From a virus: a stretch of 64,000 bases of DNA. Below, piece after piece: positions 37,697 to 59,100 of this stretch. Location: IMG/VR virus record IMGVR_UViG_3300025087_000044, positions 35,114-99,113 of that record; one strand, 5' to 3'. The notes under the pieces are model-generated. The model was not told where the DNA came from and ran no database searches. It saw nothing but the letters and a program-made list of their open reading frames with translations. Position numbers and translations under genes: made by a program. How positions within the stretch are numbered: the first letter of the stretch is position 1; each line of letters opens with the position of its first letter.

Positions 37697-37698
37697 AT

Positions 37699-40764: not shown

Positions 40765-40765
40765 T

Positions 40766-41209
40766 ATGAAAAAGAAACTGCTTATAGTTGCCCATTTTGA
40801 CGATGAGATACTGTGGTTCAATCCTTATAAGTTTGACAAGATAGTTGTTTGTTTCCTTGGCAGAGATGATAAGCCTGGGTTCGATGTGAAAAGACTTGCC
40901 GTATTCGCTGAGCATCCGTTAAAGGAAAAGATGGAATGTCTTAATATAAACGAACAAGATGATTGTGCTGAAAAAGCTATAAATGATTATCTCATTGGCA
41001 ATGGTAGGAAATTTGACTTTATCCACACTCATAATTCAAAAGGAGAATACGGCCACAAGCACCATTTAATGGTTCATTCCATAGTTAAGAGGCTATTCCC
41101 TGATGAGATTGTTGAAAGTTGTCTTGACAACACCAACAGCAAAGACAGATGGTTCGTAAGCATTAAAAATATATATCTAAAATATGGATGCTGGACTTGG
41201 AAAAAGTAA
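40766..41209 (+). CDS. PIG-L/LmbE-like deacetylase
   Basis: VAHFDDE...THN..GEYGH.HH. Confidence 0.75.
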   Translation: MKKKLLIVAHFDDEILWFNPYKFDKIVVCFLGRDDKPGFDVKRLAVFAEHPLKEKMECLNINEQDDCAEKAINDYLIGNGRKFDFIHTHNSKGEYGHKHHLMVHSIVKRLFPDEIVESCLDNTNSKDRWFVSIKNIYLKYGCWTWKK

Positions 41210-42248
41210 ATGTTTTTACGAAAGAGATATTGATAAGTTGATTAAGTATGATGACTTCGGCAGGAAGTCAAGGCTCTTAGTGTCCAAGGAAAACATTGAG
41301 AGCGTTGGACTTGAATACCATGAAGGAAGATGTATAAAAATAAAAGTAAGCCCTGATTTTATTGGTAATTTAGATAAAGTTAGAAAGCTATCATTAGTTG
41401 GCCAGTATTTGTGTTACAGGGGGCTGAGTCCAAAGATTTATGACTGCGGAGTTGTAACTGTCGGTGGCATTGAGTATCCTTATTTTGACGTTGAGTATAT
41501 AGCTAACAAGAAAAATTCAAATGACACAAACAAAATCAAGGATGAGGTGCGTAAAGAACTTAACAAGCTTGATTGGATTACTAAGGTTTATGAAGTTGAT
41601 TTAATTAACCAAGATAATTACATCGGAAATAAGTATATAGACTTCCATGGATTTGAAATTGACGATGACAAATTTTACAGATGGATTGTTGGATTGATAA
41701 ACAACAACACGCATTGGGGACATAAGAATGAAGCTGGAAACAAATTCGCTTATCAGGATTTTGATGGAGTAATCGGCAAGAGAAGGATTGAAGATAGGAT
41801 TGTTTCACTTGGCGCGGATAAGATTGATTATCGTGGAAAGACCGTGCTTGACATAGGATGCAATCTTGGGTTGATTGCAAATTACGCCATGGAATCAGGA
41901 GCAAGTCGGTCTGTTGGTGTGGACTTAAAGCCAGTTATAGAGGCCGCTGACATGTACAAATTGCACAAAGGATACAAGACTGAACTATATTATTCAGAAC
42001 TAACGGATAAGAACATCACGCAGTACGGAAAATTTGATATAGTGTTTTTCTTAGCCATGAGTTACTCGCTTGGAATCCCCAAGGAGTTGGCTGAAATTAC
42101 TGAAGAGTTGCTTGTTTATGAAGGGCATGACAGAGAAGATAAAGAAAAAACATCAACAAAGCTTAACGCCATATTTAAGAGGGTTGTTTTTGCGGGATTC
42201 ACTAATGACAGAGGAAAGCGGCCTACATTTATTTGTTACAAAAAATAG
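41184..42248 (+). CDS. kinase-like domain plus SAM methyltransferase fusion
   Basis: GLSPKIYD...N..YIDF N-half; GKTVLDIGCNLG C-half. Confidence 0.65.
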   Translation: MDAGLGKSKCFYERDIDKLIKYDDFGRKSRLLVSKENIESVGLEYHEGRCIKIKVSPDFIGNLDKVRKLSLVGQYLCYRGLSPKIYDCGVVTVGGIEYPYFDVEYIANKKNSNDTNKIKDEVRKELNKLDWITKVYEVDLINQDNYIGNKYIDFHGFEIDDDKFYRWIVGLINNNTHWGHKNEAGNKFAYQDFDGVIGKRRIEDRIVSLGADKIDYRGKTVLDIGCNLGLIANYAMESGASRSVGVDLKPVIEAADMYKLHKGYKTELYYSELTDKNITQYGKFDIVFFLAMSYSLGIPKELAEITEELLVYEGHDREDKEKTSTKLNAIFKRVVFAGFTNDRGKRPTFICYKK

Positions 42249-42249
42249 T

Positions 42250-42816
42250 ATGACTAAGTACAATTTTGGATGTGGAAATAAATACGAGAAAGGATATGTC
42301 AATGTTGATGCTTTGAATTGGTCAGTTCCTCCGGATGTGTTGTGGGATTTGTCTAAAGTCCCTTATGAATTCGCTGATGATAATTCAGCAGACGAGATAT
42401 TGGCTATAGAGGTTCTTGAGCATTTATCATTCAGGGATACTGTAAAGGTTCTTGGTGAGTGGAAGCGAATCCTAAAGGTTAACGGAAAGCTTACAATCCA
42501 AGTCCCTGATTGCGGAAAGATGATGGAGTATTATGTTGATGGAAAGATATGCTCATGTGTTGAGCATAAGCCTAAAGATGAGTTTGAGGGGTACGGTAAG
42601 GAGTCTTGCTTTGAGTGTGGTGGAAGAGGAAGGATAAATCCAACTCGATGGCTATATGCTTTTACAGGTGCACAAAAGACCGGAACTGCGGATATTCACA
42701 AGAACATCTTTACCAAGCAGATATTGTCCAACGTGTTTGATGTTTGTAAATTTCGTTCTTATGAAATAAAAAGTGATAAAAGGGGTTGGAAACTAATTGC
42801 TGAGGCAACTAAATAA
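42250..42816 (+). CDS. SAM-dependent methyltransferase
   Basis: NFGCG...YVNVD...VLEHL...RILKVNG. Confidence 0.85.
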   Translation: MTKYNFGCGNKYEKGYVNVDALNWSVPPDVLWDLSKVPYEFADDNSADEILAIEVLEHLSFRDTVKVLGEWKRILKVNGKLTIQVPDCGKMMEYYVDGKICSCVEHKPKDEFEGYGKESCFECGGRGRINPTRWLYAFTGAQKTGTADIHKNIFTKQILSNVFDVCKFRSYEIKSDKRGWKLIAEATK

Positions 42817-42817
42817 T

Positions 42818-43294
42818 ATGACAATCAGAGATATTGCTAAAGTTACAAACTGGGAAGACGTTAAACGTTCAATCAAATATCATTATCCAGATGACCACAA
42901 TGATTACGAGAAACTGTTTTTATCCTTTCCTAACAGAAAGAAGAAGAAAGTTAAGATTGGAGAGTCACTCGTTGTACATGGAGGGATTGATGTTAATTCA
43001 GAGTGGTTCAAGGTTCACGGAAGGCATTACTTGGAGAGTTTAGAGACTGGAGATGAGAAGCAGTATTACGGCATTAACATAAAGAATGAAGGAGATGAGC
43101 AGTCTTGGTCATTGATGTTTGTGGATTATGATTGTCTTGTTAATGTACCTATAAATGAAGTTACTCTGAAATGTTTCATGTTTGCGGATATACTTGCTCA
43201 TTTCATTTGGGAGATAACGTATTTAGGAGGAGAGAAGGAAATGAAGAAGAAGCGTACTGAATTTGATAAGACAATTAAATCAATTAAAAAATAA
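42818..43294 (+). CDS. hypothetical protein (DUF6557-like)
   Basis: AHFIWEITYLG. Confidence 0.55.
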   Translation: MTIRDIAKVTNWEDVKRSIKYHYPDDHNDYEKLFLSFPNRKKKKVKIGESLVVHGGIDVNSEWFKVHGRHYLESLETGDEKQYYGINIKNEGDEQSWSLMFVDYDCLVNVPINEVTLKCFMFADILAHFIWEITYLGGEKEMKKKRTEFDKTIKSIKK

Positions 43295-43298
43295 CTCT

Positions 43299-44963
43299 AT
43301 GAAGATTTGCATAGTCGTAGATTCCCCTTCTTGGGCCATAGGAAAACTTGCCATTGCCAAGGTTAAGCATAACTCTCATCACCAGTTCGAGTATCTTGTT
43401 GTCCACCCCAGGGATGCAGGAGAAAAGCCGATTCAAGATGCTTTTATTGAGAAGATTAGAGCATTTGACCCGCAGATAATCCATTTCGAGTATTTCAGAA
43501 CGGCTTCACAACTTCTAGTAGCGTTTCCCGAATTGAAGAAGTACAAGATAATGCTTACTCATCATAACCAGAGGGACAAGAAAGCTTTACTGTCTGCTGA
43601 CTGGGAGGTTCTTGGCGTTAATCAAAACATCACGCATACAGAGAAATGCAAAAAGATATTGGTTGAAAGAGGCAATCAGAAACACGTTGATGTAATCAAG
43701 CATGGAGTGGATAGCGATTTGTTCATTTTTTCAGACAAAGAACCAGAAGAGTTCACTGTTGGATATGTTGGACGTATAGTGCCATGGAAGAGGTTGAAAG
43801 ATGTGGCAGAGATATGTCATGAGTTGAAAGTCCCTTTAATGTTTATGGGAATGAGAGACAAGGAAGATTACTGGCAGACTATTTCTGACGAGGCAAAGAA
43901 TTCAATAAACTTTTCATTCATGGATTGCAAGGACGAAGAGAGAATTGATTTCTACAGAAACATAACGTGTTGCGTTAGTTTCTCTGATGATGGATACGAA
44001 GAGGGGCCATTATCCTTTTTTGAGGCCATGTTCAGTGGAGTGCCTGTGATTACCACGCCTAACGGGACAGCGGCTGAGTTTGGTAAGGATAACGAGAATT
44101 GCCTCATGGTTGGATTCGGAGACAGGGAAGCATTAAAGACTTCCATTATAAAGTTAAGAGATGACTTTGAGTTAAGGAAAAAGTTAAGAAACAATGCCTG
44201 GGATTTTATCAAAAATTACAACGAGAAACGAATGGCCTATGATTATTCAAGAGCTTATAATAAATTGATGTTTGGCGACAATGACTTAGTTTCTGTAATT
44301 CTGCCCACTTACAACAGAAAGGAACAAGTTATATCAATTCTCAACAGGATAAAGGAACAGACATATAAAGCCATTGAAGTTATCATTGCCGATGACGGGT
44401 CGGATGAAGAAGGTTTTATGGATGATATAAACAGATGGAAGTATTCCAATAATGATTTGACTGTCAAGATTGTGCATACAGGCAATGATATAATCAGAAA
44501 AACAGGAAAGAAGGCATACGGATTAGCCATGGCTAGGAATATGGCAGTGTGCGAATCAGAAGGAAGATTCCTTATGTTCTTAGACAGTAGAATCCTTCCT
44601 GACATAAACGCCGTAGAAGATTTTGTTGTATTTGCCAAGGGACAGCTTGCCATTGACGGCAAGAAGAAGATGTGGTATTTCGGAAACAAGGGCAATGGAA
44701 AGTCAACTTTCGTAGAGAACTTTTCTTTCGTTGAGCGAGATGCGTTTATTAAATTCGGAATGTTTAATGAACGGATAACAGCTTATGGCGGTATGAGTCA
44801 AGACATAAGAATGAGATGGCCAAAGACCAATGATAATGAATTTATGTTCTTGAGCGATATAAACGCTACTGAGATGATAAGCGCACACAAGCGTGGCGAT
44901 GAGCGTAGAAAAGACATTATAGACATGAAGTTCTTATTATATCGTTTGAACTTATTAACATAG
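43299..44963 (+). CDS. GT4-GT2 fusion glycosyltransferase
   Basis: YVGR...EEGPLSFFEAMFSG, then VSVILPTYNR...DDGSD. Confidence 0.88.
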   Translation: MKICIVVDSPSWAIGKLAIAKVKHNSHHQFEYLVVHPRDAGEKPIQDAFIEKIRAFDPQIIHFEYFRTASQLLVAFPELKKYKIMLTHHNQRDKKALLSADWEVLGVNQNITHTEKCKKILVERGNQKHVDVIKHGVDSDLFIFSDKEPEEFTVGYVGRIVPWKRLKDVAEICHELKVPLMFMGMRDKEDYWQTISDEAKNSINFSFMDCKDEERIDFYRNITCCVSFSDDGYEEGPLSFFEAMFSGVPVITTPNGTAAEFGKDNENCLMVGFGDREALKTSIIKLRDDFELRKKLRNNAWDFIKNYNEKRMAYDYSRAYNKLMFGDNDLVSVILPTYNRKEQVISILNRIKEQTYKAIEVIIADDGSDEEGFMDDINRWKYSNNDLTVKIVHTGNDIIRKTGKKAYGLAMARNMAVCESEGRFLMFLDSRILPDINAVEDFVVFAKGQLAIDGKKKMWYFGNKGNGKSTFVENFSFVERDAFIKFGMFNERITAYGGMSQDIRMRWPKTNDNEFMFLSDINATEMISAHKRGDERRKDIIDMKFLLYRLNLLT

Positions 44964-44968
44964 TAAAT

Positions 44969-46018
44969 ATGGATACAATAAAAATTTTAAATTATTCCTG
45001 GCATTTATCACATCAGAATTCTCTTTTTTCCATTCCAGCAACTGAATGGTCGTGGCTCACTCAGTATAAACGTCAGTATGGTACTGGAGTAAGAGGTGAT
45101 ATTCTTAAAAAGTATAATGTAAAGTCGGTTCCTTTTTTCGAGAAAGGAAAATATGACGCAGTACTGCTTCATCTTGACCAGCAATGTTTCGAGGATAGTC
45201 TTTGGGAGAGAGGAAAGGGAAGTTTGTTTCGAGAGGTTAACAGTTCTGTTTATGGAGTGCCTAAGATTGTAATCATGCACGGAACGCCTTTTTATCCCGA
45301 GATGTTTCCTTCTGATATTCAAGATTTCAATTATAAAGAGTTGGGCTTTGAAGAGTCGCAGATAAACATGAGCAGCGAACTTATCAATCGATTTAAAGAT
45401 GCGGTTAAAGACTTTGATAAGATAGTGTTCAATTCAAGACGAGCCAAGAGCCAATGGGGATTTGACAATGACGCTAGAGCTATTGCAATCTGGCATGGAC
45501 TTGAAGCTACTGATTGGCTTGACCTTCCCAAGGAGCCTCGTGTAGTTACTATGATTAGTCCTGGAGGGTTAGATAGTTATTACGATAGGACATTTTTAAA
45601 AGCCGTTAAGGACAAATTGTCAGAAAAAGACATAATGCACTGTCATATTACGGTTGATGTGCAGTTCAAGTCATTCGATGAGTACCGAGATTTCCTCGGA
45701 AGAAGTCTTATTTATTTCAATCCCACAAAAGAGAGTCCGATGCCAAGGTCGAGAACAGAGGCTATGCTTTCAGGTTGTTGCGTTGTTACTACGTTCAATC
45801 AAGATTCTGAATTATTTATGAAAGACGGAGTTAATGGATTCAAGGCTATCCGCAATCCTGATTATGTAGTAACTCTCATAGAGGGTCTTATAAAAAATTA
45901 TCAAAAGGCCATAGAAGTTGGACAGGAGGGCAAGAAGACTGCACTTGAGTTGTTTTCCAAGGACAGGTTCGAGTCCCAGTGGAGAGGCCTCCTTGAGGAG
46001 GTTACACATAAGCCCTAA
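44969..46018 (+). CDS. GT4-like glycosyltransferase
   Basis: ESPMPRSRTEAMLSGC; DGVNGF. Confidence 0.82.
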   Translation: MDTIKILNYSWHLSHQNSLFSIPATEWSWLTQYKRQYGTGVRGDILKKYNVKSVPFFEKGKYDAVLLHLDQQCFEDSLWERGKGSLFREVNSSVYGVPKIVIMHGTPFYPEMFPSDIQDFNYKELGFEESQINMSSELINRFKDAVKDFDKIVFNSRRAKSQWGFDNDARAIAIWHGLEATDWLDLPKEPRVVTMISPGGLDSYYDRTFLKAVKDKLSEKDIMHCHITVDVQFKSFDEYRDFLGRSLIYFNPTKESPMPRSRTEAMLSGCCVVTTFNQDSELFMKDGVNGFKAIRNPDYVVTLIEGLIKNYQKAIEVGQEGKKTALELFSKDRFESQWRGLLEEVTHKP

Positions 46019-46999: not shown

Positions 47000-47427
47000 G
47001 TTAAGCGAGTCTGAAATAAGCAGTTTATTTTTAGAGCGTATTTTAATAAAGATTATGAAATCAACACGATTAGAATATATCTGGTATTGCGTTAGAGTCT
47101 CTTGCGGCTCAATCGTGTTAAAGAGTAATGAGTTAGTATTGCCTAAAAACAAAAAGTACGAGTGCAAGAGATGTCTTGCCCAGTACACAGGTCTTGAACT
47201 TATGCGGAATAATAAACGCAATATAAAGAAATTTGCTGATAGTTTAGCCAAACAGACTGTGGATAACTCTACTTGTTGTCAATCCAATAATAATGTTGTA
47301 CAGTAAAGATACAATATATAACCTAGGTAACGTATTGCATTTGTTTTCGAGCAAATGCTATAACAAGCACCTAACTCAAGAGTGAAAGCTTAGTTTTCAT
47401 TTTTAAGTGGGGTGCTTTTGCGTATAT

Positions 47428-49614
47428 ATGAATATATTTCAATCCATAAGACAAGGATTATCTAATTTTAGGAGCAAAGATGCTCCCAAGATTAACAATG
47501 TAGATAATTCTTTTGTTAAAAGTGTTGGATATTCAGAAGAAGTTGCTGGAAGTAGTCAGGAAGAGTTATTGAGTTCCATTAAAGGTTGGTCGTATACTTG
47601 TATCTCGGCCATAGCAGACCAGATAGCTTCCATTGATTTGAAGTTGTATAGATTAAAGCCTGACGGCTCGGCTGATGAAGTTGTGGACAGCCCGATTTTA
47701 GATGTTTTGTATAAGGTCAATGATTTCACTACAAGATTTGACCATTTTTGGATAACGCAAGCGTTCCTTGAGGCTGTTGGAGAGGCGTATTGGTATTTGG
47801 ATATTAACAATGGAATTGTTGATAACATTTATTTTTTACAACCAGATAAAGTTGAGCCTATCATTGACAAGACTAGAATAATCGCAGGATATAATTATAG
47901 TGTCAATGGAAGTAAGATTGCCTTGCCGTTGGAACGGGTTGTGTTTTTCAAGCTACCCAACCCAGCTAATCCGTTTAGAGGCTTTGGAACAATGGAGGCT
48001 GCTGCAAAAACCATTGACCTTGACAACTATTCAGAAACGTGGAACAGAAACTTTTTCAAAAACTCTGCCAGACCACATAGTATCTTAAAAGTAAAGAATC
48101 AGAATTTGTCAAAAGAGCAGATGGAAAAGTTAAAATCTTCTATCGCATTATCATATCAAGGGCTTGAGAAGGCGCATGGAACTATGATTCTTTTTGGTGA
48201 TATGGAAGTAACTCCATTTGGAACCGCTCCCAAGGACATGGATTACGTAAGACAGCAAGAATTCGCAAGAGATAAGATTCTCGGTATATTCAGAGTGCCA
48301 AAGGAAGTAGTTGCTCAAACTTCAACGTCTAGTTTTGCGGCTGCAAAGACGGCTCAATATGCTTTTGCCAAATGGACAATCCAGCCTAAAATGGAACGGC
48401 TTATTCAGCAAATGAATGAGTTTTTTATCCCGATGTTTGCTGATTCTGAAGGATTGTATCTTGATTACACTAATCCCATTCCGGAAGATGATAATTACAA
48501 ATTGAGTCTTTACAATTCAGGAATAGTAAACGGGTGGATGACAGTAAACGAAGTTAGGAGTATGGAGAATCTTCCTTCTGTTGATGGTGGAGATGAGTTG
48601 AGAGCTAACGCGCCTGTGTTGCCGTTGGGATACGGATACACCCCTAATAAATCAATTAAAATCAACCAAGAACGATGCAAGGAGATAAAGTCAAGAAACA
48701 AGGAATACTATCAAGTAGAGGGTGAGAAGTTGAAATTGTTAAACAAGATAAAGAACCAGTTGCGGAAAGACATTTCCAATAAGATGAAGAAAAAAGATGC
48801 TGAGATTAGCGTTAAAAAAAAGTCATGGGAAATCGAGACGAAGATGGCTTTTTATCAGATAAAGAGCGTTATTTACGACAAGAATGTTATCAAGGCATAC
48901 AAGCTTCAATCAAAAGTGTTTAAAGAGCAGAAAGTTGAGGTTCTGAGTAAGTTTAAAGAAAATTACCCGCAAGAAAAAGCTCTTGATATAAACAAATTGA
49001 TTGCTTTGTTATTGCTGGACAAAAAGAAAGAGGCTAAGCGGTATAAAGATGCCATGTCTGCCTTGTTCTCAGATATATTCAATTCAAGCGCAACTGCTAC
49101 GTCAGACTTCATGAGAGAGAATCACGATGCAGACGTTGACACGTCAGAAATTACTCCTGAAAAATATATCAAGAAAGCCACGTCTAAAGTTGCCGGCAAG
49201 ATAACTGACACTACTAATAGTTTGATAAGGGGCAGATTGTCTGAAGGAATCGCTAATGGAGAGAGTAACGAAAAACTTGCCAAGAGAATTTCCGATTTAT
49301 TTGACGAAGCAGAGCAGGGCAGGGCTATGTCTATAGCAAGAACCGAGACAGCCAGATACAGCGAGCAAGCCACTCTCGATGTTTATAAAGAATCAGGAGT
49401 TGTTGACGGAAAGGAATGGGTTGTCAACCCTGACGCTTGTGAGTTTTGTCAAGAAATGGATGGAAAAACAGTATCGTTAGAGGAAGGCTTCGCAGGTAAG
49501 GGTGACGACCTTGAAGGTGTTGATGGAGGCGAGATAACAAATAGCTGGGACACGTTAGACACTCCACCGCTTCACCCGCAATGCAGATGCTTAATAGCTC
49601 CAATTTTTAAATAG
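47428..49614 (+). CDS. HK97-family portal fused to MuF/SPP1 gp7-like head morphogenesis domain
   Basis: GEAYW, FFKNSARP, IFRVP, MTVNEVR..ENLP; C-terminal RAMSIARTE...KEW...PPLHPQCRC. Confidence 0.92.
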   Translation: MNIFQSIRQGLSNFRSKDAPKINNVDNSFVKSVGYSEEVAGSSQEELLSSIKGWSYTCISAIADQIASIDLKLYRLKPDGSADEVVDSPILDVLYKVNDFTTRFDHFWITQAFLEAVGEAYWYLDINNGIVDNIYFLQPDKVEPIIDKTRIIAGYNYSVNGSKIALPLERVVFFKLPNPANPFRGFGTMEAAAKTIDLDNYSETWNRNFFKNSARPHSILKVKNQNLSKEQMEKLKSSIALSYQGLEKAHGTMILFGDMEVTPFGTAPKDMDYVRQQEFARDKILGIFRVPKEVVAQTSTSSFAAAKTAQYAFAKWTIQPKMERLIQQMNEFFIPMFADSEGLYLDYTNPIPEDDNYKLSLYNSGIVNGWMTVNEVRSMENLPSVDGGDELRANAPVLPLGYGYTPNKSIKINQERCKEIKSRNKEYYQVEGEKLKLLNKIKNQLRKDISNKMKKKDAEISVKKKSWEIETKMAFYQIKSVIYDKNVIKAYKLQSKVFKEQKVEVLSKFKENYPQEKALDINKLIALLLLDKKKEAKRYKDAMSALFSDIFNSSATATSDFMRENHDADVDTSEITPEKYIKKATSKVAGKITDTTNSLIRGRLSEGIANGESNEKLAKRISDLFDEAEQGRAMSIARTETARYSEQATLDVYKESGVVDGKEWVVNPDACEFCQEMDGKTVSLEEGFAGKGDDLEGVDGGEITNSWDTLDTPPLHPQCRCLIAPIFK

Positions 49615-49633: not shown

Positions 49634-52327
49634 ATGGACAAGAAATACTTAAAAGCGATAACCAAAAGACAGAAGAATGGTTCACTGCTTGCGATTGCGT
49701 CAACTGAGAATAAGGATAGAGTCGGAGATTCTTTGAAAGCTGAAGATTGGGATTTTAAGCATTTTCAAAATAATCCAGTCCTTCAGGCAGGCCATGATTA
49801 CAGGCCTCAGTATACGATTGGAATTGCAGAGAATCTTAAGGTTGAGAACGGACAAGTTACGTTCACGCCAAAGTTTCATAACATCACAAAACTTGCCCAA
49901 GAGATAAGCAAGATGTATGAAGAGGGTTTTTTGACTGCTTGGAGTGTTGGCTTTATTCCCAAGGAATCTAACGTAGAAATCAAGAAGAATCAACTGCTTG
50001 AGGTTTCAGCAGTTGCCGTTCCTGCCAACCCTTATGCTTTGACTTCTTTAAAGAGTTGCAAGAAAGAATTGGAGAGTGTTGATAATGATGTTATAGAAAA
50101 TATAAAAGAGTGGGTAACTAAAGAATATGACGAGTTAACTGAACAGCCAGTCGAAGAGCCAGTTGTTGAAGCACCCGAAGAAGGTGTTGATGAAAAGATT
50201 TGGGATGATTCTGAAACAGAGGTAAGGTATAGAGTCAAAAACCCTGAATTATTCGAGCAAGATTCTTTTAGAACCATTGCCATAAAAGAAGACAAGCCAT
50301 CAATCAATGCTGTTATTGGAAAGCTCATCGGAGAAGAGTCAACAACTATCCAATCGCTTGTTTTCTCTAAAGATGAGGGCCGGACGTTAGAAGATGCGAA
50401 AACTTGGGTTGAAGAACATCCTGACATTAAAGCTATAGGAGAAGAGGACGTTCCATTGCCTGACGAAACGGTCCCTGAAGACATGCCAATGGATAAGCCT
50501 GCCGAAGACGCAGAAGAGTCTGAAAGCGATAAGCCTGAAATGATGAAGATGCAAACGGGAGAAACCAATGGACACACGCACGAGGCTGAGTTCGGTAAAG
50601 AATCTGGAAACGGAAAAACCAATGAAGTTGAAATGCACTATCATGACATTGAAAATTTTATTGTAAAAGAAGCTGGAGAAGTTGCTCACACTCATTCATT
50701 AGATGTTCAGCCTGAAGAGGGGAATGAAGATGAGGAGGTTGTGATAGAAGAGACTGGCTTGAGGGAGTTTAAGTATAAGGAGAGATGGAACAAGTCGTTA
50801 TCAAAATCGTTCGACATTGAAAATGCTCCGTCGATAACAAATAGCCCGATGTTTAAGATTTACACAAAGTATCTTGAGTGCAGCGTGAAGGACGTATTTG
50901 TTAATAGTACATTCGTTCCGTCTCCGATGATTGGAAATTACTTAAATGCTGTAAAGAATATATTGTCTGGATATAACTTGAAAGGCACTAGGGGATATGA
51001 TTTGTGGAGTGGAAATGAAATTCCACCATTATCTGAAGTCATTAAATTGAACTCATCTAGTTCAGACGACTTCCTTGTTCAAGGAACTCAGTATTACGAA
51101 AACGAAGGAAAGGGTTTTGTTGTACAGTATCAGCCAGTCTGGGGAGGAATGAGTGTCGACATATTGACTTCCAGAAATGACAAGGATTTCAATAAGAACA
51201 TAAAGAAGTTAATTGAAGATTACGCAGAGAAGAACAATAAACTAAAAGGAGAAATGTTTGCTCTAAGCGGTGAGTTCTTGGTTAAGACTGATGAACGGTT
51301 TGATGATATTGTGCTAGATGCAGTAGTTAAGAAATCAATCGTGAACACATCTAGTCAGATGGTTAAGAAGGGCATTGAGTTCGCCAGTCGAGGAATGATA
51401 TTCATGGGACCGCCAGGAACAGGGAAGACTAAAACGTGCAGAGCCATAATGAATAGTTCTGATTCTACGTTCATCTGGGTATCAAGCAAGGATTTAAGGG
51501 CTTACGGAGCGGTTGAATGTATAAGTTTGGCTTATTCTTTAGCTAGGAAGATTGCTCCTGCAATCATCTTGTTTGAAGATATTGATACATGGATTAAGGA
51601 TTATGTTATTGATGCGTTGAAGACTGAACTTGACGGGCTTAATTCCACCAAAGCTATCCTTACAATCCTTACGTCAAACAATCCTGAGAACCTGCCTGAT
51701 TCATTGATTGACAGACCAGGAAGATTCCATGAAGTGCTTGAATTCGGACTTCCTAATAAGGCATTGAGGTCAGAGATGATTGTAAAATTCATAGGAGATT
51801 CCATTGATTCAGTTGACACGGATAATCTTAACAAGGTTATTGATGACACAGAAGGAATGTCAGGTGCACATATTAAAGAGTTGGTTGAATACGCCAAAGT
51901 GATATCGGAAGAAGAAGCGGTCAGTCTTGATGTGGCTTTAGTAAAGAGTCTTGACAAGATAAAGAAACAGAGAGAGTTGATAAGCACTATACAGTCAAAG
52001 GCATTTAATCTGAAATTAAAGGAAGGAAGAGTATTGTCAACTAAAAACATTGAAGTAATTAACCAAGCGATAACTGCTCAAAAGAACTCAGTTCAGGTAC
52101 TTGAGAAACTTTTAGAAGAGTCATCAGCAATGAATGACGCTTCCAAAGCTCAAAAACCCTTTAACAAGAACGAGAGTTTAGCTAAAGGTCGGACAGAACC
52201 CCAAAAACGGATGGAGCAGAAAACCATAGGTCAGATGGAGACATCAGACCAAATAGTTTTACGGGTTCTACAAAAAATAGCGGGGCAATCTTGCTACGCT
52301 TTAAACAAGTTGAATAGAAAAATATGA
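49634..52327 (+). CDS. HK97 prohead protease fused to acidic/His-rich linker and AAA+ ATPase
   Basis: ASTE..DR.GD, NPVL..H, SVGF, LLEVSAVAVPANP; GPPGTGKT, ILFEDID, TSN, DRPGRF. Confidence 0.88.
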   Translation: MDKKYLKAITKRQKNGSLLAIASTENKDRVGDSLKAEDWDFKHFQNNPVLQAGHDYRPQYTIGIAENLKVENGQVTFTPKFHNITKLAQEISKMYEEGFLTAWSVGFIPKESNVEIKKNQLLEVSAVAVPANPYALTSLKSCKKELESVDNDVIENIKEWVTKEYDELTEQPVEEPVVEAPEEGVDEKIWDDSETEVRYRVKNPELFEQDSFRTIAIKEDKPSINAVIGKLIGEESTTIQSLVFSKDEGRTLEDAKTWVEEHPDIKAIGEEDVPLPDETVPEDMPMDKPAEDAEESESDKPEMMKMQTGETNGHTHEAEFGKESGNGKTNEVEMHYHDIENFIVKEAGEVAHTHSLDVQPEEGNEDEEVVIEETGLREFKYKERWNKSLSKSFDIENAPSITNSPMFKIYTKYLECSVKDVFVNSTFVPSPMIGNYLNAVKNILSGYNLKGTRGYDLWSGNEIPPLSEVIKLNSSSSDDFLVQGTQYYENEGKGFVVQYQPVWGGMSVDILTSRNDKDFNKNIKKLIEDYAEKNNKLKGEMFALSGEFLVKTDERFDDIVLDAVVKKSIVNTSSQMVKKGIEFASRGMIFMGPPGTGKTKTCRAIMNSSDSTFIWVSSKDLRAYGAVECISLAYSLARKIAPAIILFEDIDTWIKDYVIDALKTELDGLNSTKAILTILTSNNPENLPDSLIDRPGRFHEVLEFGLPNKALRSEMIVKFIGDSIDSVDTDNLNKVIDDTEGMSGAHIKELVEYAKVISEEEAVSLDVALVKSLDKIKKQRELISTIQSKAFNLKLKEGRVLSTKNIEVINQAITAQKNSVQVLEKLLEESSAMNDASKAQKPFNKNESLAKGRTEPQKRMEQKTIGQMETSDQIVLRVLQKIAGQSCYALNKLNRKI

Positions 52328-55300
52328 GTAAGAAAATTACAATCAACGGTAAAACCTACATCGAAGATGAGGGAGCCGCTCCTGAAACAACGGAGGAAGA
52401 AGTGAAGGAAGAAGGTGTAAGCGAGGAAGTGATTGACGAAACAGCACAGAAGATTCTCAAATCCTTGGGTATTGATGAGTTGAGAAAGTCAATTGCTGAG
52501 CTCAAACAGGCCACAAGCAAAGATAACGGGATTGACGCTAAGACCGCCTCTCTAATTGACCTTGCAGGCTTGATGAAGAAAGATGTCAATCAGTTGACAG
52601 TACAAGAGAAAATCATCGGATTCTTTCAGGCCATGGTTCAGAACAACCAGACCGTCATGAAAGCTTTGTCCGAGGGTTAGATAGCAGAAGCCCTCATTAA
52701 AATCGGTGAATTGCTGGGAACTCCTTTTTCAAAGGACAATCAGCAGCCAAGCTTTCGCTTAAATGGCGACTGAAGGTTCAACGACTAGGTCTTGAAACTG
52801 CGTATAGCAGAATATAACAGACCCAAGAGTGCCGATTACTAGCTCGTTAACAATTAAACTTGACTAATTCTCATAATTACTTTAAAATTATTGTATAATA
52901 ATTAAATTGTATTTATGAGAAAGATTCTCCAAAAGATAAAAACTGCCAGAGGAATTGGCTATGTAATGGAATGCGTTAATTGTCATAAGCCTTTCAGAAT
53001 AAAAAAATGGGATTATGACAATTTAAGAAAGGGAACTTATTGTTCTAACAGCTGTCGAGGTGAGTATCAACGTGTTTCTCTTGTTGGAAAACTTAATCCT
53101 AATTGGAAGGGTGGAAAGGTTCAGATAAAATGTATGGTTTGCGGAACAAGGGTTATGATTAAAGTTAAAGATGCAAAAAGGGGTGGTAAGTATTGTAGCA
53201 AACGGTGTAAAGACTATGACAACAGTAGAGTTGTTAAAATGAATTACGCAAACAATCCTGGACTAAGAGACAAGACAAAGCACGTTGGCGATAAAAACGG
53301 AAGATGGCTGTGTGGAAAGTCGTTTGAACCTTATACAACCTCTTTTAACGAACATACTAAGAACATTGTTAAAGACAGAGACAATAGAGTCTGTATGATT
53401 TGTGGAGTTAACGAAAAAGACCTAAGAGAGTCTTTAAACGTTCATCACATTGATTATGATAAAAAGAATAGCAACATTAACAATCTCATTTCATTGTGTA
53501 ATGTGTGTCATTCTAAAACAAATTCAAACAGAGAGTATTGGAGAAATTATTTGTCAAGTTTAATTGTTAACTAGCAGTAATGATATAGTCTGAACTGCAT
53601 AGTAATATGCAGATGCAACAAAATTAAAAAAGTTGCGATAACATAATGACTGCTGCCGATGGAGGATATCTTTTCCCTAAACGATTCATTGGGGCATACT
53701 AAATAAGTATGAAAATTGGGTGAACTGCTGGAACGTCCACTAAGTGGATAATCAGCAACCAAGCTAAAGGTTAAAATCTTTAGAAGGCTCAACGACTAGA
53801 GGGTGAAACTTGTTAAAAGAATATAATCCCTCCACGAGTGCCCAACTTCTTGAATTTGTAGCTGATATGTTGTATAATGTAATTATAATAAATAATTAAA
53901 TTATATGCGTAAAGGCTCTAAGATGACATTAGAACAGAGAAAAAGAGTTAGTCTTGCTCATTTTGGACATCCTGCATGGAATAAGGGTAAAAAGATGCCA
54001 GAATGGTGGGGAAGATTGTCTTCAGAAAGAGTATTAGCTGGAATAGGAGGAATGAAGGGAAGACATCACTCAGACAAGACCAAAGAAAAACAGAGAAAAT
54101 CCAATAAGACAAAACTACTTTGGCAAAATCCTGATTATAGAAAGATGATGTCCGAAAAGCACAAATGGCTTACTGGAAAAAATAATCCTGCTTATATTGA
54201 CGGAAGAAAGCCTCTAGTAATGAGAGTAAGAAATTCAGAAAAATATGAGAAATGGATTAAGTCTGTTTTCGAGAGAGATGATTACACTTGTCAAGACTGC
54301 AACGTTAGAGGTGGTAAATTAGAAGCACATCACATCAAAGGTTTTTCTAAGATATTTTCAGAAAATAACTTTAAAACCTTTGAGCAAGTAATGGACTGTG
54401 AAGAAATGTGGAATATGGACAATGGATTAACTCTCTGTAAAAAATGTCATAGCAAGATAAGTACAAGAAGATGATATAGTCTGACCACTAGATATACATA
54501 AAACTAGTGAAGCAAAAGATAAAGAACTTTTGCGATAACATAAATGGATGAGTTTGTTTCCGAGGTAGTTCGCGATTTGTCCAACGAGATGTATATGCGT
54601 AAACAACATTGCGCCCTTGCGTAAGCAAGGATAATCGGGTTAAACGGGGAAACTCCCTAACAAGGACAATCCCGTAGCAAGCATGAGGTTAAAATCTTAT
54701 GACGCTCTAACGACTAGATAGTGAACCTCTTAATTGAGAACATAACCTATCCACGAGTGCCCGACATTAGCTCTTTACAACTTAGATAGTTGAGACTCAA
54801 GAAATTTGATATGTTCTTGAAGACATTTAATAAATGTTTTCTCACCATTTCCCTTTTTGTCTGTTATCACAAGGTTTTCTGGGCGATTGTCATTTCTAAT
54901 GCCGTTTAGATGGTGAACAACATCTTGTTTAGTTAATTGCTTGTTATATTTAATAGAAGCTATTAAACGATGTTCGGGAACGTATCCATTAGAATCTGAT
55001 AAATAATGATTACGCATTTTTACTTTAACATATCCGTCTGCTGTATTAAACTTGCCCCCACGCCACATTGGATTACCTGATAACATCTGTCTTTTAGAGA
55101 TTGTTGCTCCACGTTCAGGAAGTTTATAGTTACAAGATGCGCATCTAAGATTTTTCTTGGGAATTTGTTTATTGCAATCAATGCAAAAATTAACAATCTT
55201 TTTTCTCAACATATTATCTAAGTTTAATTATTATATATATATTGTATATGTATAATCATTATAAGTAAAGTTCAAGTGAAGATATAGTCTGAACGCTACA

Positions 55301-57518
55301 GTAATGTAGTGACATAGAAGATAAAGAACTTCTATTATAACAAAATTGAATGAAGTTACGGTGGTTCCGATGAAGAGGGACATCATGAAGATTCCGACAT
55401 TGACATCTGGCCCGAAAGTAGCTTGGACGGCTGAGAATGCCGCGAAAAGCACAACGACAGCTACGTTCGATGAGGCGACTTTGACCGTCAAAAAGATGGC
55501 CGCCATAAAAATACATTGTGGCACTATACTGAAAAGTATAGTTAAAAATTCGGTAAATTGCTGGAAAACCCTGTTTCAAAACAGGACAATCAGCAGCCAA
55601 GCTTTGGCTTAAATGGCCAATGAAGGTTCAGAGACTAGGTGGTGAAACTATATATATAGAATATATCCACTCACGAAAACCGAATATCTATTTTGAACTT
55701 TGACAATTGACAATTACACTCTCATTATATATAATACAATTATTTATAAACTAATTGTGATATTGTATGAGAGAAAGAATAATCCTTGATAAAAAGACAA
55801 ACAGACTTGGAACGCTAAGTTATTTTGTGAAATGTGTTATGTGCGGAAAAGAGTTCTGGATAACAGAAAGTCAATTCAAAGACGGAAGAGGCCTTTACTG
55901 TTCACAGAAATGTTATCACTCTGACCCATTAGTAATTGATAATTTCAACAAAAGTTTTGCTTCGTTTAAAAAGGGAAAAGCTTCATGGAGTAAAGGGTTG
56001 ACTAAAGAAACTAGTATAATTATAAAACGAATGGCAGAAAAAAGAATTGGTGATAAGCATCCGTTATGGAAAGGAGGAAGAGCCAAAATGACTGGCGGAT
56101 ATATCGGTGTATTGATTCCAGAGCATCCAGATGCCAATGTTAACGGACGAGTTTTAGAACATAGATTGGTAATGGAAAAGAAACTTGGAAGAAGACTTGT
56201 TCATTACGAAGAGGTCCATCATAGAAACGGAATTAAAACTGATAACAGACCAGAAAACTTAGAGCTTGTATTGAAGTACAAACATCAAGGAGAAATTCAA
56301 TGTCCATATTGTCAATGTATGTTTAAAATAAAATAGATAATGATATAGTCCGACCTTACAGGAAACTGTAAGAAGCAGAAGATAAAGAGCTTTTGCGATA
56401 ACAAATTGAATGTACATCTCGGACGAATTGGTAGAAGATTCTGATAGCATCGACATCGTTAAGTTCATTGTTACTTTGTTCTCTGAAGCGATTGGAACCG
56501 AAGAAGACCGTGTTATCACAGCGGGTAACGGAACTACTGAGCCTACCGGCTACAATACTTCCGCCAATCCTGGAACGATAGCATGTTCTGGCAACTTGAG
56601 TTATGCCAACATGGTAGACCTCGAGTACACTTTGCCTGCGAAATATCATCGCAATGCAAAGTTCTTCGCGCACAGGAACAACATTCGAGAACTCCGCAAG
56701 ATGGTGGATTCCAATTCACGTCCTTTGTGGAGCGACCCGATTGCTCCTGGCCAGCCCCCGACATGGCACGGATTAAGTGGTAGTCCCTGTTATGCGTAAT
56801 CATAACAGAAAAGACGGTGAATTGCTGGAAAACCCTGTTTCAAAACAGGGCAATCAGCAGCCAAGCTTTACCAGTAATGGTTTAGAAGGTCCAACGACTA
56901 GGGGATGAGTCCACGTAGTGGATGATAATTTCCCCCAAGAGTGCCGTCCACCTTGAAAAAGGTGATGATATAGTCTGAACACTGACTATAAATAAAATCA
57001 GTGAAGCAAGAAATAAAGAGTTCTTGCGATAACATAATTGACCAAGTCGTTGAAGACAACAATCTGCCTGAGTCAGTTATCGCCTTTGGCGATTTGAAGC
57101 AGGCTTATTGGTTGGGCGACCGCAAGTCTATGACAGTGAAGGTAACTCAGGACACTGAGACTGCATTAACTGGTACATCGTACAAGTGCAGTATAAAGAG
57201 GATGAATTGCTGGGAAGCCCTGAAATGGGTTATCAGCAGCCTAGCTTTGCCAGTAATGGCTTAGAAGGTTCAGAGCATAGAGTCCGAGTCCCTCCGGGAC
57301 GATAATGACTCCACGAGCGTCCTCAATCCATTAGTTTAATGGATTATGATATATGCCGACCACCAGATATGAATAAAACTGGTGAAAAGTCAGATAAAAA
57401 ACTGGCTTGTTAAAAATATTTAGTTGTCCATGACCAAACAGCTGTCCGTGTTGTTTCTCGCATTGCAGGTAATGTAGTTAATCCGTACGCTATCAAGAAA
57501 CTTACAAACATTCCGTAG
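52324..57518 (+). CDS. HK97-fold major capsid protein, spliced from 7 exons (393 aa)
   Basis: join(52324..52677,53649..53678,54547..54600,55349..55506,56409..56773,57041..57166,57424..57518) = 1182 nt open frame: ...ALSEG-TAADGGYLFP-DEFVSEVVRDL...MR-NEVTVVPM...KKMAAI-MYISDELVEDS...WHGY-QVVEDNNLP...FGDL...TAF-VHDQTAVRVVSR...NIP*. Confidence 0.93.
52678..53648 (+). mobile_element. group I intron 1 of capsid gene (971 nt, HNH ORF in P8)
   Basis: P1 GAGGGU/GCCCUC; AATCAGCAG; AACGACTAG; GATATAGTC; terminal G 53648. Confidence 0.92.
52915..53574 (+). CDS. intron-encoded HNH homing endonuclease
   Basis: zinc-finger repeats, NPNWKGG; CMICG...VHHIDY.K.N....NLISLCNVCH. Confidence 0.88.
   Translation: MRKILQKIKTARGIGYVMECVNCHKPFRIKKWDYDNLRKGTYCSNSCRGEYQRVSLVGKLNPNWKGGKVQIKCMVCGTRVMIKVKDAKRGGKYCSKRCKDYDNSRVVKMNYANNPGLRDKTKHVGDKNGRWLCGKSFEPYTTSFNEHTKNIVKDRDNRVCMICGVNEKDLRESLNVHHIDYDKKNSNINNLISLCNVCHSKTNSNREYWRNYLSSLIVN
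53679..54546 (+). mobile_element. group I intron 2 (868 nt, HNH ORF in P8)
   Basis: P1 CCCU/GGGG; P10 AUUCAU/AUGAGU; core motifs; terminal G 54546. Confidence 0.9.
53905..54474 (+). CDS. intron-encoded NUMOD3-HNH endonuclease
   Basis: WNKGKK, GRHHSDKTKEK; VFERDDYTCQDC...HHIK...LCKKCH. Confidence 0.88.
   Translation: MRKGSKMTLEQRKRVSLAHFGHPAWNKGKKMPEWWGRLSSERVLAGIGGMKGRHHSDKTKEKQRKSNKTKLLWQNPDYRKMMSEKHKWLTGKNNPAYIDGRKPLVMRVRNSEKYEKWIKSVFERDDYTCQDCNVRGGKLEAHHIKGFSKIFSENNFKTFEQVMDCEEMWNMDNGLTLCKKCHSKISTRR
54601..55348 (+). mobile_element. group I intron 3 (748 nt, antisense HNH ORF in P8)
   Basis: P1 GCGU/GCGC; AACGACTAG; AAGATATAGTCTG; terminal G 55348. Confidence 0.9.
54775..55212 (-). CDS. 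intron-encoded HNH endonuclease on the antisense strand
   Basis: YVPEHRL...VHHLNGIRNDNRPENL. Confidence 0.85.
   Translation of the reverse strand: MLRKKIVNFCIDCNKQIPKKNLRCASCNYKLPERGATISKRQMLSGNPMWRGGKFNTADGYVKVKMRNHYLSDSNGYVPEHRLIASIKYNKQLTKQDVVHHLNGIRNDNRPENLVITDKKGNGEKTFIKCLQEHIKFLESQLSKL
55507..56408 (+). mobile_element. group I intron 4 (902 nt, HNH ORF in P8)
   Basis: P1 GCCAU/GUGGC; P10 UACAUU/AAUGUA; core motifs; terminal G 56408. Confidence 0.92.
55767..56336 (+). CDS. intron-encoded HNH endonuclease
   Basis: LEHRLVME..LGR...VHHRNGIKTDNRPENL. Confidence 0.88.
   Translation: MRERIILDKKTNRLGTLSYFVKCVMCGKEFWITESQFKDGRGLYCSQKCYHSDPLVIDNFNKSFASFKKGKASWSKGLTKETSIIIKRMAEKRIGDKHPLWKGGRAKMTGGYIGVLIPEHPDANVNGRVLEHRLVMEKKLGRRLVHYEEVHHRNGIKTDNRPENLELVLKYKHQGEIQCPYCQCMFKIK
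56774..57040 (+). ncRNA. group I intron 5 (267 nt, no ORF)
   Basis: P1 GGAU/GUCC; short P8 CACCTT-GAAA-AAGGTG; terminal G 57040. Confidence 0.92.
57167..57423 (+). ncRNA. group I intron 6 (257 nt, no ORF, variant P7)
   Basis: P1 ACUGCAU/GUGCAGU; P7 GCAUA/UAUGC; P8 AATCCATTA/TAATGGATT; terminal G 57423. Confidence 0.88.
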
Positions 57519-57541
57519 TCCTAAGTTTGTTGATGGTTTTT

Positions 57542-57777: not shown

Positions 57778-59100
57778 ATGGGAGAGTATTCTCAAGAACT
57801 ACCAAACATGCACCCTGCTACAGGCAGGGTCATTAAGGAAGATGGAACCACTAAGAACATAGCGGATGCCATTATTACGGACATTAACGGGAACGAAGCG
57901 GTGAGGACCACAGCTACCATGTCTGGAGATGTCAATGTTGACCAGACTTCAATCAATGTTAACGCCTACGTTGGAAAACCGCTTGGAACCAATGGGGATT
58001 TTGTTACTGCCAGGACCGGTGACACTACGTTTACTTGCGCAACTTTGCCTGTTGGAGTTGCCGCTATAAAGAGCGAGGACATTGAGTTAATCAGGCAGAT
58101 AAGTGCAGCTGGAGTAGTGGTTGCTTCTTACAGTAGGGATGATGTAACCATAACGGTTGCAGGCACAGACCCGACTACGGTTACCGTTGCAGGTGCTGTT
58201 TTTGGAGCGACTGATACGATTATTGTTTATACCAACATCAGTAAGACTAATTTTATAGCGTCATCGTCAAAGCCTGCTGCCGTCGCGACTGGTGCTATTG
58301 TACGTCCTTATTTTGACATATACGGCAGGCAGCGAGTGTATGACGAGGGTGGTGGAGGAGTTGGTGGAGGCGGTTTCATGACTTACGTGTTTGATTCATT
58401 GAATTCTTTTAGGCTTGGAACTACGCTCTATGTCGCAGCTACTCAGTTTTCCGTGAGCGGACATAATTTCACTCCCAATCCAGCTGCTTTGATTAAGATT
58501 GACAGATTCAGTTCTGCCGGTGCTTATCAGGAGACTATAACTCCATATTCTCATGTCATTGCTGTTTCAACGACAAGCGGAGTGTCTACATATACGGTAA
58601 CTGGAATGGCTGCTTCTGCCGGTGATACATTTGTCGTGTACCAGCAAGGTCCTGAAAGAACCATAACAAATTCAAGTGATTCGCAGAGAATTGACAACAT
58701 CAACCCGCTATCGTATCAGACTATTCCTGACAGCTGGGTAGATACAACCAATGTAGCCGCGGCTACGGTATATTATCCGTCTGCTTTAGGTTATTCCAAT
58801 GACGGTACAAAAGACGAATCGACATCGTATAAATTCATTGACGCGGACGGCACTATTACCTTAACGCATGAATCCACTAATGATGAAGACCAGACCAACG
58901 CGGATTGGGTTGATGATACCAAGGCGTTGTACGATAGGAACGCGGACGCTACGGGAGCTTCTTCGTTCACGGTGACTAACGGTACGATGACGGGAATCTT
59001 AGATTCGGATAATAACAGCGCAAGGTTTAGTCGTTGGAAAGTGGTGTATTCAGGCTCGACCAATACCGCTATCCTTAAATCCAAGAGAAAGGCTTTGTAA
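57778..59100 (+). CDS. putative virion structural protein
   Basis: Thr/Gly/Ala-rich, beta-rich, follows the capsid gene. Confidence 0.6.
   Translation: MGEYSQELPNMHPATGRVIKEDGTTKNIADAIITDINGNEAVRTTATMSGDVNVDQTSINVNAYVGKPLGTNGDFVTARTGDTTFTCATLPVGVAAIKSEDIELIRQISAAGVVVASYSRDDVTITVAGTDPTTVTVAGAVFGATDTIIVYTNISKTNFIASSSKPAAVATGAIVRPYFDIYGRQRVYDEGGGGVGGGGFMTYVFDSLNSFRLGTTLYVAATQFSVSGHNFTPNPAALIKIDRFSSAGAYQETITPYSHVIAVSTTSGVSTYTVTGMAASAGDTFVVYQQGPERTITNSSDSQRIDNINPLSYQTIPDSWVDTTNVAAATVYYPSALGYSNDGTKDESTSYKFIDADGTITLTHESTNDEDQTNADWVDDTKALYDRNADATGASSFTVTNGTMTGILDSDNNSARFSRWKVVYSGSTNTAILKSKRKAL

Follow-up and report, generated by a model that had tools for sequence, protein, structure and literature searches.

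An HK97-type prohead protease joined to a predicted Bcs1/YjoB-like AAA ATPase in the head module of uncultured phages

Introduction

The viral DNA analysed here, referred to as the window, comprises the 64,000 nucleotides at the 3' end of a metagenomic contig of 99,113 bp (IMG/VR record IMGVR_UViG_3300025087_000044, positions 35,114 to 99,113; completeness 81% according to CheckV). One of its genes encodes a protein, designated P0001, in which a prohead protease is followed by an AAA ATPase. The question raised by this locus is what an ATPase contributes to a protease of capsid maturation. The maturation of tailed-phage procapsids is taught as being ATP-independent until DNA packaging, and in HK97-like phages a small protease digests the scaffold domain by itself: HK97 gp4, a protein of 225 amino acids (aa), works without ATP. 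Extensions of prohead proteases by a scaffold or a capsid protein are already known, as are AAA proteases built as one chain (FtsH, Lon). An initial annotation of the window, made from the sequence, described the gene as a prohead protease fused to a His-rich module and a complete AAA+ ATPase, and compared the ATPase to unfoldases of the FtsH/Cdc48 type.

The fusion is conserved in a large family of uncultured phages

The frame of the gene is uninterrupted from ATG 49634, or from an alternative start at TTG 49622, to the stop at 52327. The translation confirmed that all parts of the protein lie in a single reading frame (49634-52327), as the initial annotation had stated, and the Walker A sequence, ILFEDID, DRPGRF and KEGRVLSTKN that it had pointed out were all found at the expected residues (the coordinates of all features are collected in Table 1). 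The gene is a genuine single-chain fusion and sits in the head module between the portal and the capsid gene.

The identical P0001 protein was recorded from 7 contigs. When IMG/VR was scanned, at least 263 contigs were found to encode a relative, and 80 loci kept from these were used for the locus-level comparisons. In most of the 80 independent loci the protease Ser motif, Walker A and DRPGRF were present in a single unbroken open reading frame (ORF). The recovery of the exact protein from several contigs, together with the one-ORF architecture of most loci, implies that the fusion is neither a chance event nor the chimeric assembly against which the initial annotation had cautioned. The sequences of the family are only 30-50% identical, with near-invariant catalytic motifs.

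In a word-seeded search, about 100 clusters with proteins 520-1460 aa long matched at E ≤ 1e-65, and many of them carry precomputed matches to both PF04586 and PF00004. When a profile of the conserved domain that precedes the AAA core (the N-domain) was run against 1.84 billion representatives, 374 clusters were retrieved, 230 of them at E ≤ 1e-30, and the N-domain nearly always lay within proteins of 650-1500 aa, at a distance of 200-700 residues from their N-terminus. According to a crude motif test, the protease-then-AAA order was present in 95 of 128 representatives. In the variant P0095, AAA, Peptidase_S78 and Phage_capsid domains occur in one chain and the domain order is reversed, and in L059 the AAA domain has an ORF of its own, with an S78 protease ORF after it. 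In both variants the functional link is thus retained.

The long relatives (1310-1460 aa) were considered as protease-AAA-capsid fusions and rejected, as neither Pfam nor PHROG detected a capsid domain in the 500-700 residues at their C-terminus; such a domain was found in P0095 alone. The long forms P0059, P0061, P0072, P0077, P0079, L067, L071 and L077 (1227-2046 aa) extend 500-1270 residues past the AAA domain, and this part has no Pfam or PHROG match. In P0086 (1099 aa), precomputed HNH (PF13392) and intein (PF14890) matches were found and a regular expression detected no intact Walker A, which suggests that an intein is inserted in the ATPase gene.

Among 50,697 phage records, no match extends over more than 29% of P0001, and the matching part is only the AAA core, at 25-30% identity. 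A search of 185,579 species genomes revealed 5 true relatives only, all on contigs of metagenome-assembled genomes from unrelated phyla. These are likely mis-binned phage contigs, and an assignment to prophages or hosts by this route was dropped. The fusion is a conserved state in a large family of uncultured phages. The initial annotation had allowed that the architecture might already be common and described: common it is, in metagenomic phages, though absent from cultured ones, and our literature search found no paper on a fusion of a prohead protease with an ATPase of this type.

The N-terminal domain is an HK97-type serine protease with intact catalytic residues

The N-terminal HK97 protease of the initial annotation was borne out, its core comprising residues 1 to about 145 (to ~50070). 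PHROG prohead-protease and protease-capsid families match residues 11-155 at 1e-12 to 1e-14. Pfam Peptidase_S78 (PF04586) scores 18.5 bits on P0001, which is under the membership cut-off of 21; relatives exceed it (25.6 bits in P0077, 28.2 bits in P0095, and many precomputed matches). In the family alignment of 104 rows, with gaps counted, H54 is retained in 93, S104 in 91 and E123 in 95 rows. Among the aligned sequences that have a residue at these positions, His54, Ser104 and E123xS125 are each conserved in more than 90%. BLASTP aligned WSVGF of P0001 with MSVGF of HK97 gp4, LEVSAVAVPAN with REISVCTFPAN, and the helix that follows with IETIRDVENW.

The AlphaFold2 (AF2) model of residues 1-285 has a mean predicted local distance difference test (pLDDT) score of 78, with values of about 80-96 in the protease. 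When this model was submitted to Foldseek, the top three matches were T4 gp21 chains (5jbl; probability 0.99, at a modest E of 5.6e-3), and herpesvirus proteases ranked further down. Judged by its motifs, the N-terminal domain is an HK97-type serine protease with its catalytic His and Ser intact, and it is apparently active. P0001 shares with HK97 gp4 (MEROPS S78, PF04586) the catalytic His and Ser motifs, ExSxxxxPAN and the trailing helix (..VD..IE.I...W.), as well as the position of the gene between those for portal and capsid protein; in both systems the capsid protein has a delta domain. P0001 differs from gp4 in having about 730 further residues, which include the ATPase.

The ATPase module is best compared with YjoB and Bcs1

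The AAA+ domain is complete, as the initial annotation had it: Pfam AAA matches at 7.6e-19 and the full motif set is present. Walker A, E648-D649, N682, R694 and R697 are retained in 102-103 of the 104 alignment rows, and each motif of the classical-clade set, including SGAH, in 93-103 rows. An inactive ATPase, the other weakness that had been envisaged, appears improbable in view of these near-invariant catalytic motifs.

Two sequence characters are informative on the subtype. The Walker B motif carries 'ED' (E648, D649) in all 103 sequences having a residue at the column, and a regular expression detected it in 117 of 128 further representatives. Pore loop 1, in turn, is not conserved: residues 622-624, including the aromatic position, differ between sequences, and conservation is confined to G625 (80 of 104 rows). 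Among classical AAA proteins YjoB and Bcs1 are the exceptions that have ED, and both are active ATPases (PMC9565160). The critical pore-loop residues are not conserved in Bcs1 (PMC7994207). YjoB and Bcs1 hold or move folded proteins inside a chamber and do not thread unfolded chains (PMC9565160, PMC7994207).

The N-domain is conserved across the family and was modelled with pLDDT > 90. A single predicted model of residues 376-830, comprising the N-domain and the AAA domain together (pLDDT 85.9; predicted template-modelling score 0.77), was the query for both Foldseek and VIA-align. The best Foldseek match was YjoB (7w42; E 1.4e-19, 423 columns), followed by chains of the Bcs1 heptamer (9gsn, 6sh3 and 6ukp; 1e-16 to 1e-13, about 400 columns). 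Matches to the AAA domain alone reached about 1e-13 or weaker, and the N-domain was covered only in the YjoB and Bcs1 alignments. VIA-align superimposed residues 1-403 of the model on residues 10-404 of YjoB with a Z of 19.5 over 350 residues. Sequence matches of the AAA domain in the PDB were to p97/Cdc48/YjoB and AFG2. A PDB profile search with the alignment of N-domain and AAA was discarded as a test of subgroup: p97/Cdc48 came out on top because they have two AAA domains each, and the ranking does not discriminate.

Taken together, the ED motif, pore loop 1, the N-domain and the Foldseek matches suggest the Bcs1/YjoB subtype of classical AAA proteins as the best analogy for the module, which is apparently an active ATPase. 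The initial annotation had read DRPGRF as a sign of the FtsH/Cdc48 clade. The motif does mark the classical clade, but the subtype indicated by the characters above is Bcs1/YjoB. For the same reason an unfoldase like FtsH or Cdc48 is not the best analogy, since YjoB and Bcs1, the top Foldseek matches, handle folded proteins in a chamber and not by threading, and pore loop 1 is not conserved.

YjoB of Bacillus subtilis, a soluble hexameric chaperone-like AAA protein, is the best structural match and shares with P0001 the ED, an N-terminal domain followed by a single AAA domain, the classical motifs and the lack of a transmembrane segment. However, the two are only about 20% identical, the N-domain has no detectable sequence similarity, and YjoB is a stand-alone cellular protein of Bacillales that has neither protease nor tail. 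Mitochondrial Bcs1 (6sh3, 6ukp, 9gsn), which as a heptamer translocates the Rieske protein in its folded state, likewise has an N-domain beside the AAA domain, ED and non-conserved pore-loop residues, but it carries an N-terminal transmembrane anchor and works at the membrane, whereas P0001 has the protease and an acidic linker in that place. No transmembrane segment was found in P0001, where the highest Kyte-Doolittle mean over 19 residues is 1.53 and falls inside the AAA core; in this respect P0001 resembles soluble YjoB and not membrane-anchored Bcs1.

FtsH and Lon also combine ATPase and protease in one chain, and FtsH belongs to the classical clade as well. In these enzymes, however, the AAA domain precedes the protease, which is of the M41 or S16 type, and conserved aromatic pore loops thread the substrate. 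P0001 has the protease before the AAA domain, an S78-like protease, a degenerate pore loop 1 and an ED Walker B. In BFVD, the nearest viral models belong to proteins of about 400-450 aa that stand alone; they come from uncultured phages, Tenacibaculum phage PTm1, crAss-like cr10_1, Serratia phage Yaphecito and giant viruses ('BCS1'). Such stand-alone BCS1-like ATPases, which occur in jumbo phages and in giant viruses, belong to the same fold class as the module but are not fused to a protease, whereas in P0001 module and maturation protease are physically tied together.

A possible role in head assembly and the alternatives

From the position of the gene, the protease and the type of ATPase we infer that P0001 is a factor of head assembly or maturation, whose ATPase ring handles capsid substrates for the tethered protease or regulates it. 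This is the reading that we tentatively favour, with somewhat less than even confidence. The N-domain and the AAA domain would form a ring of 6 or 7 members with a chamber, as in YjoB and Bcs1. The conserved basic tail would bring the protein into the assembling procapsid, by analogy with HK97 gp4, which carries a C-terminal targeting tail. ATP would be spent to hold or move folded or partly folded substrates of capsid assembly, most plausibly the delta domain of the capsid protein in the form of delta-domain bundles, and these substrates would thereby be presented to the 6-7 tethered protease domains, or the action of the protease would be timed. Maturation would thus follow the HK97 pattern except for one step that depends on ATP, and this step would operate by a chamber mechanism and not by threading.

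In Bcs1 the substrate passes from the AAA-side cavity through the N-domain seal to the N-terminal helices (PMC7994207). It is suggestive, by analogy, that the proteases of the family would be attached on the same N-terminal side towards which the Bcs1 substrate travels. Stand-alone phage BCS1 orthologues have been proposed to bind or move folded proteins in head assembly (Iyer et al. 2021, PMC7824862), and the fusion supplies Rosetta-stone evidence for this proposed role.

Several points weigh against our proposal. The Bcs1/YjoB assignment draws on a predicted structure and the ED motif. In sequence comparisons, 74.6 bits were obtained for the AAA core with YjoB and 76 bits with a p97 D2 fragment; neither Pfam BCS1_N nor any other Pfam or PHROG family matches the N-domain; and the global TM-scores to YjoB and Bcs1 are 0.4-0.5 only, which may reflect domain orientation. 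The oligomeric state, the encapsidation and the substrate are all inferred, and the supply of ATP within a closed procapsid is uncertain. A fixed geometry of ring and protease is apparently not required, as the linker varies between about 30 and 340 residues and the order is reversed in P0095. A likeness by eye between the C-terminus of HK97 gp4 (..INALLQSIKSFPSNLGK) and the family end ..ALQKI..SN..L was rejected as a sign of homology: a hidden Markov model built from 34 family tails gave the last 60 residues of gp4 -0.8 bits, a score equalled or exceeded by 475 of 2000 shuffles, so that the resemblance is not above chance. Nor did the tail alone find any match by tblastn at E ≤ 1 in the 50,697 phage records.

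The alternative that survives best is that the ring is an assembly chaperone or nucleator, which acts before or during assembly of the shell, keeps the capsid protein or the portal soluble or templates capsomers, and has the protease tethered to it only for co-encapsidation; ATP would then not serve proteolysis. YjoB acts as a holdase for specific clients and depends on its chamber to do so (PMC9565160), which suits this idea, as does the degenerate pore loop 1, and the highly variable linker and the reversed order of P0095 speak against a fixed conduit from the AAA domain to the protease. Moreover, the module sits where protease-scaffold fusions carry the scaffold, and no separate scaffold gene was seen. 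Lambda C/Nu3, P2 gpO and the phrog_617-type protease-capsid proteins are likewise C-terminally extended prohead proteases (P0001 matches phrog_617 and phrog_80), but the module added in P0001 is an ATPase and not a coiled-coil scaffold or a capsid protein. Against a chaperone, the capsid protein's own delta domain normally does that job, and it would be left unexplained why the ATPase is nearly always fused to the protease and not to the capsid protein or the portal. We regard this alternative as possible, though on balance unlikely.

The tethered-protease proposal also has a stronger form, in which P0001 would represent a class of self-compartmentalised AAA protease. The ring would stand in the procapsid and use concerted ATP hydrolysis to move delta-domain bundles in their folded state, or other proteins of the interior, through the N-domain seal into a basket of 6-7 HK97-type proteases, the basket taking, by analogy, the position of the Bcs1 transmembrane helices. 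We consider this form doubtful. If it were true, maturation would be ATP-gated in a large group of uncultured phages, unlike in any studied tailed phage.

One reading frame could also give two products: an internal start would yield an N-domain-AAA-tail protein that acts as an ATP-dependent scaffold, and the full-length protein would provide the protease. Nested protease-scaffold genes are established in lambda C/Nu3 and P2 gpO, L059 has the AAA part as an ORF of its own beside the protease ORF, and both products would share the tail. However, there is no evidence of an internal start; candidate sites in the fusion gene could not be ranked, because no Shine-Dalgarno motif precedes any gene checked. 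This makes a pair of products improbable.

Still less probable is the second idea of the initial annotation, according to which the ATPase is packaged cargo. It would be taken into the head by the tail, freed by the protease, kept in the virion and released into the host on ejection, to act there as an early effector. The acidic linkers and the conserved tail at the C-terminus do recall encapsidated proteins, and a placement between the protease and a terminal tail suits a cargo arrangement. On the other hand, the family partners of the module are always head-assembly domains, a 6-7-mer ring of 45-kDa subunits is unlikely to pass through the tail of the phage, and nothing in the sequence indicates a host target. 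Finally, that P0001 is a mis-assembled chimera or a decaying ATPase without a role, for which its origin from metagenomic contigs alone might be held to speak, can be dismissed almost entirely in the face of the 7 contigs with the exact protein, the one-ORF architecture in most of the 80 loci and motifs that stay near-invariant at 30-50% identity.

Whichever of these roles applies, hundreds of uncultured phage lineages appear to couple a prohead protease to an intact ATPase of the one subtype that is known for handling folded proteins in a chamber. Under the tethered-protease reading that we favour, the fusion hints at an ATP-using step before packaging, which would be of interest to specialists in capsid assembly. 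The fusion gene together with the capsid gene could make up a compact, expressible test system, and would provide a model from a bacterial virus for folded-protein handling of the Bcs1 type.

The C-terminal tail, the linkers and the inserts

According to AF2, the tail consists of two long helices, with KEGRVLSTKN (residues 796-805, 52019-52048) between them. The KxGRVLSxKN motif is conserved in the family, and so is the extreme C-terminus (..VLRVLQKIAGQS..LNKLNRKI). GRVLSxxN was considered as a general cleavage or docking motif of head proteins. When 626,080 aa of ORFs were scanned, 43 of its 44 occurrences fell in the fusion-gene family, which rules out a site shared with other head proteins.

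Residues 146-380 form an acidic, variable filler between the protease and the N-domain, and this spacer measures about 30 to 340 residues across the family. The linker, the N-domain and the tail were also searched singly against PHROG and Pfam, and nothing significant was found. The acidic linkers and the small YRVKNP...WVEEH domain reported by the initial annotation are both present: the linkers that flank the domain contain 38-45% Asp and Glu, and the named sequence spans residues 198-262. In the AF2 model this accessory domain has four strands and one helix (pLDDT 78-93). It is common to 4 close relatives only, and its neighbours in the ESM Atlas are S78 protease and protease-capsid clusters, at TM-scores of 0.44 or less.

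The GHTH, HYH and HTH motifs are likewise in place, with GHTH starting at residue 313 (50570) and HTH ending at residue 354 (50695). The His-rich module that the initial annotation built on them is not a family feature, however, as a similar pattern of three HxH was found in L002 alone among the relatives. In six other relatives this spot is taken by a Cys4 zinc-ribbon-like module, and several others have nothing there. Thus, the His-rich stretch is a lineage-specific insert outside the core machine, possibly a metal-binding knuckle.

The Cys module (CECxxC..HC..KCPxCGGxMRRxERPG) precedes the N-domain in L003, L004, L008, L013, L022 and L028, and the same module is found in the tail, after the AAA domain, in P0038, P0039, P0041 and P0043. 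It seems to behave like a mobile mini-domain. Different Cys-rich inserts were noted in the tails of P0057, P0058, P0064, P0065, P0067 and P0070.

Organization of the locus

The gene order of the window (portal, protease-AAA, capsid protein with its own delta, or scaffold, domain) is the HK97 layout, and the order portal, fusion, capsid gene recurs in relatives. The upstream ORF matches Pfam Phage_portal at 3.2e-66 (residues 63-388), Phage_Mu_F at 7.3e-15 (residues 607-730) and the portal family phrog_2662 at 1e-117. The portal ORFs of some relatives are far longer (1094-1435 aa in L054 and L006).

The ATG of the capsid gene (52324) overlaps the stop codon of the fusion gene. The major capsid gene is split into many exons by group I introns and spans 52324-57520. 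Within it, Rfam RF00028 scores 78.9, 59.4, 48.0 and 47.8 bits, besides weaker pieces; the family threshold is 50 bits, and the latter two values fall just below it. Pieces of its exons gave Pfam Phage_capsid matches at 4.2e-18 and 1.5e-4. The capsid orthologue of L022, a close relative, is unbroken (Phage_capsid 1.4e-61) and has an N-terminal delta-like extension of 166 residues; in L003, L006 and L054 the gene is interrupted as well. The next sizeable ORF downstream of the fusion gene in the relatives encodes a PF05065 capsid protein with an N-terminal extension of 115-167 aa. A 440-aa ORF at 57778-59100, just past the capsid gene, was ruled out as the capsid gene: it has no family match and a homologue in only 1 of the 80 related loci, and the true capsid gene is the intron-split one starting at 52324. 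Its centre is Gly-rich.

Table 1. Features of the protease-AAA fusion gene and its neighbours in the window.
Feature	Coordinates	Strand	Evidence or remark
Protease-AAA fusion gene P0001	49634..52327	+	ORF list, translation: 897 aa, 100.9 kDa from ATG 49634
HK97/S78-type prohead protease and trailing helix, residues 1-170	49634..50143	+	PHROG, alignment, AF2/Foldseek
Catalytic His54	49793-49795	+	Motif AGHDY
Catalytic Ser104	49943-49945	+	Motif WSVGF
Small beta-rich accessory domain YRVKNP...WVEEH, residues 193-265	50210..50428	+	AF2 model
His-rich stretch (GHTH, HYH, HTH), residues 306-360	50549..50713	+	No Pfam/PHROG match
Conserved N-domain, residues 381-575, predicted Bcs1-specific/YjoB-NTD-like alpha/beta fold	50774..51358	+	AF2/Foldseek, conservation
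Classical-clade AAA ATPase, residues 576-770	51359..51943	+	Pfam AAA 7.6e-19
Walker A GPPGTGKT, residues 592-599	51407-51430	+	
Walker B E648-D649 within ILFEDID (645-651)	51575-51580	+	
Sensor-1, N682			
Arginine fingers R694/R697 (DRPGRF 693-698)	51713-51724	+	
SGAH motif, residues 743-746			SGA[DH] in place of sensor-2 Arg
Basic C-terminal tail, residues 771-897, isoelectric point 10	51944..52324	+	AF2, composition
Portal gene fused to Mu F-like head-morphogenesis domain, upstream	47407..49614	+	Pfam, PHROG
First exon of HK97-type major capsid gene, delta-like N-terminal domain	52324..52677	+	Translation ending ...KALSEG
Group I intron matches, RF00028	52649-52961, 53669-53979, 55497-55739, 56764-57001, 57077-57376		Rfam, plus weaker pieces
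HNH endonuclease ORFs inside three capsid-gene introns	52915-53574, 53905-54474, 55767-56336	+	
HNH-like ORF in capsid-gene region	54775-55212	-	

Other observations in the window

No Shine-Dalgarno-like motif was detected upstream of the 16 genes checked, and the upstream regions are A/T-rich. This pattern is typical of phages that infect Bacteroidota-like hosts and is at most a hint at the host here. In a 709-aa ORF (9731-11860), a PhoH-like ATPase region (residues 78-414) is found together with an RtcB tRNA-splicing ligase (residues 394-709). The terminase is encoded at 29348-30985, and a long block of sugar-modifying genes (34797-46018) lies between it and the portal gene. This block contains a UDP-glucose dehydrogenase-like ORF, a 566-aa GT1+GT2 protein (43263-44963) and a GT1-like ORF (44969-46018), and the latter two are also present in the close relatives L003 and L054.

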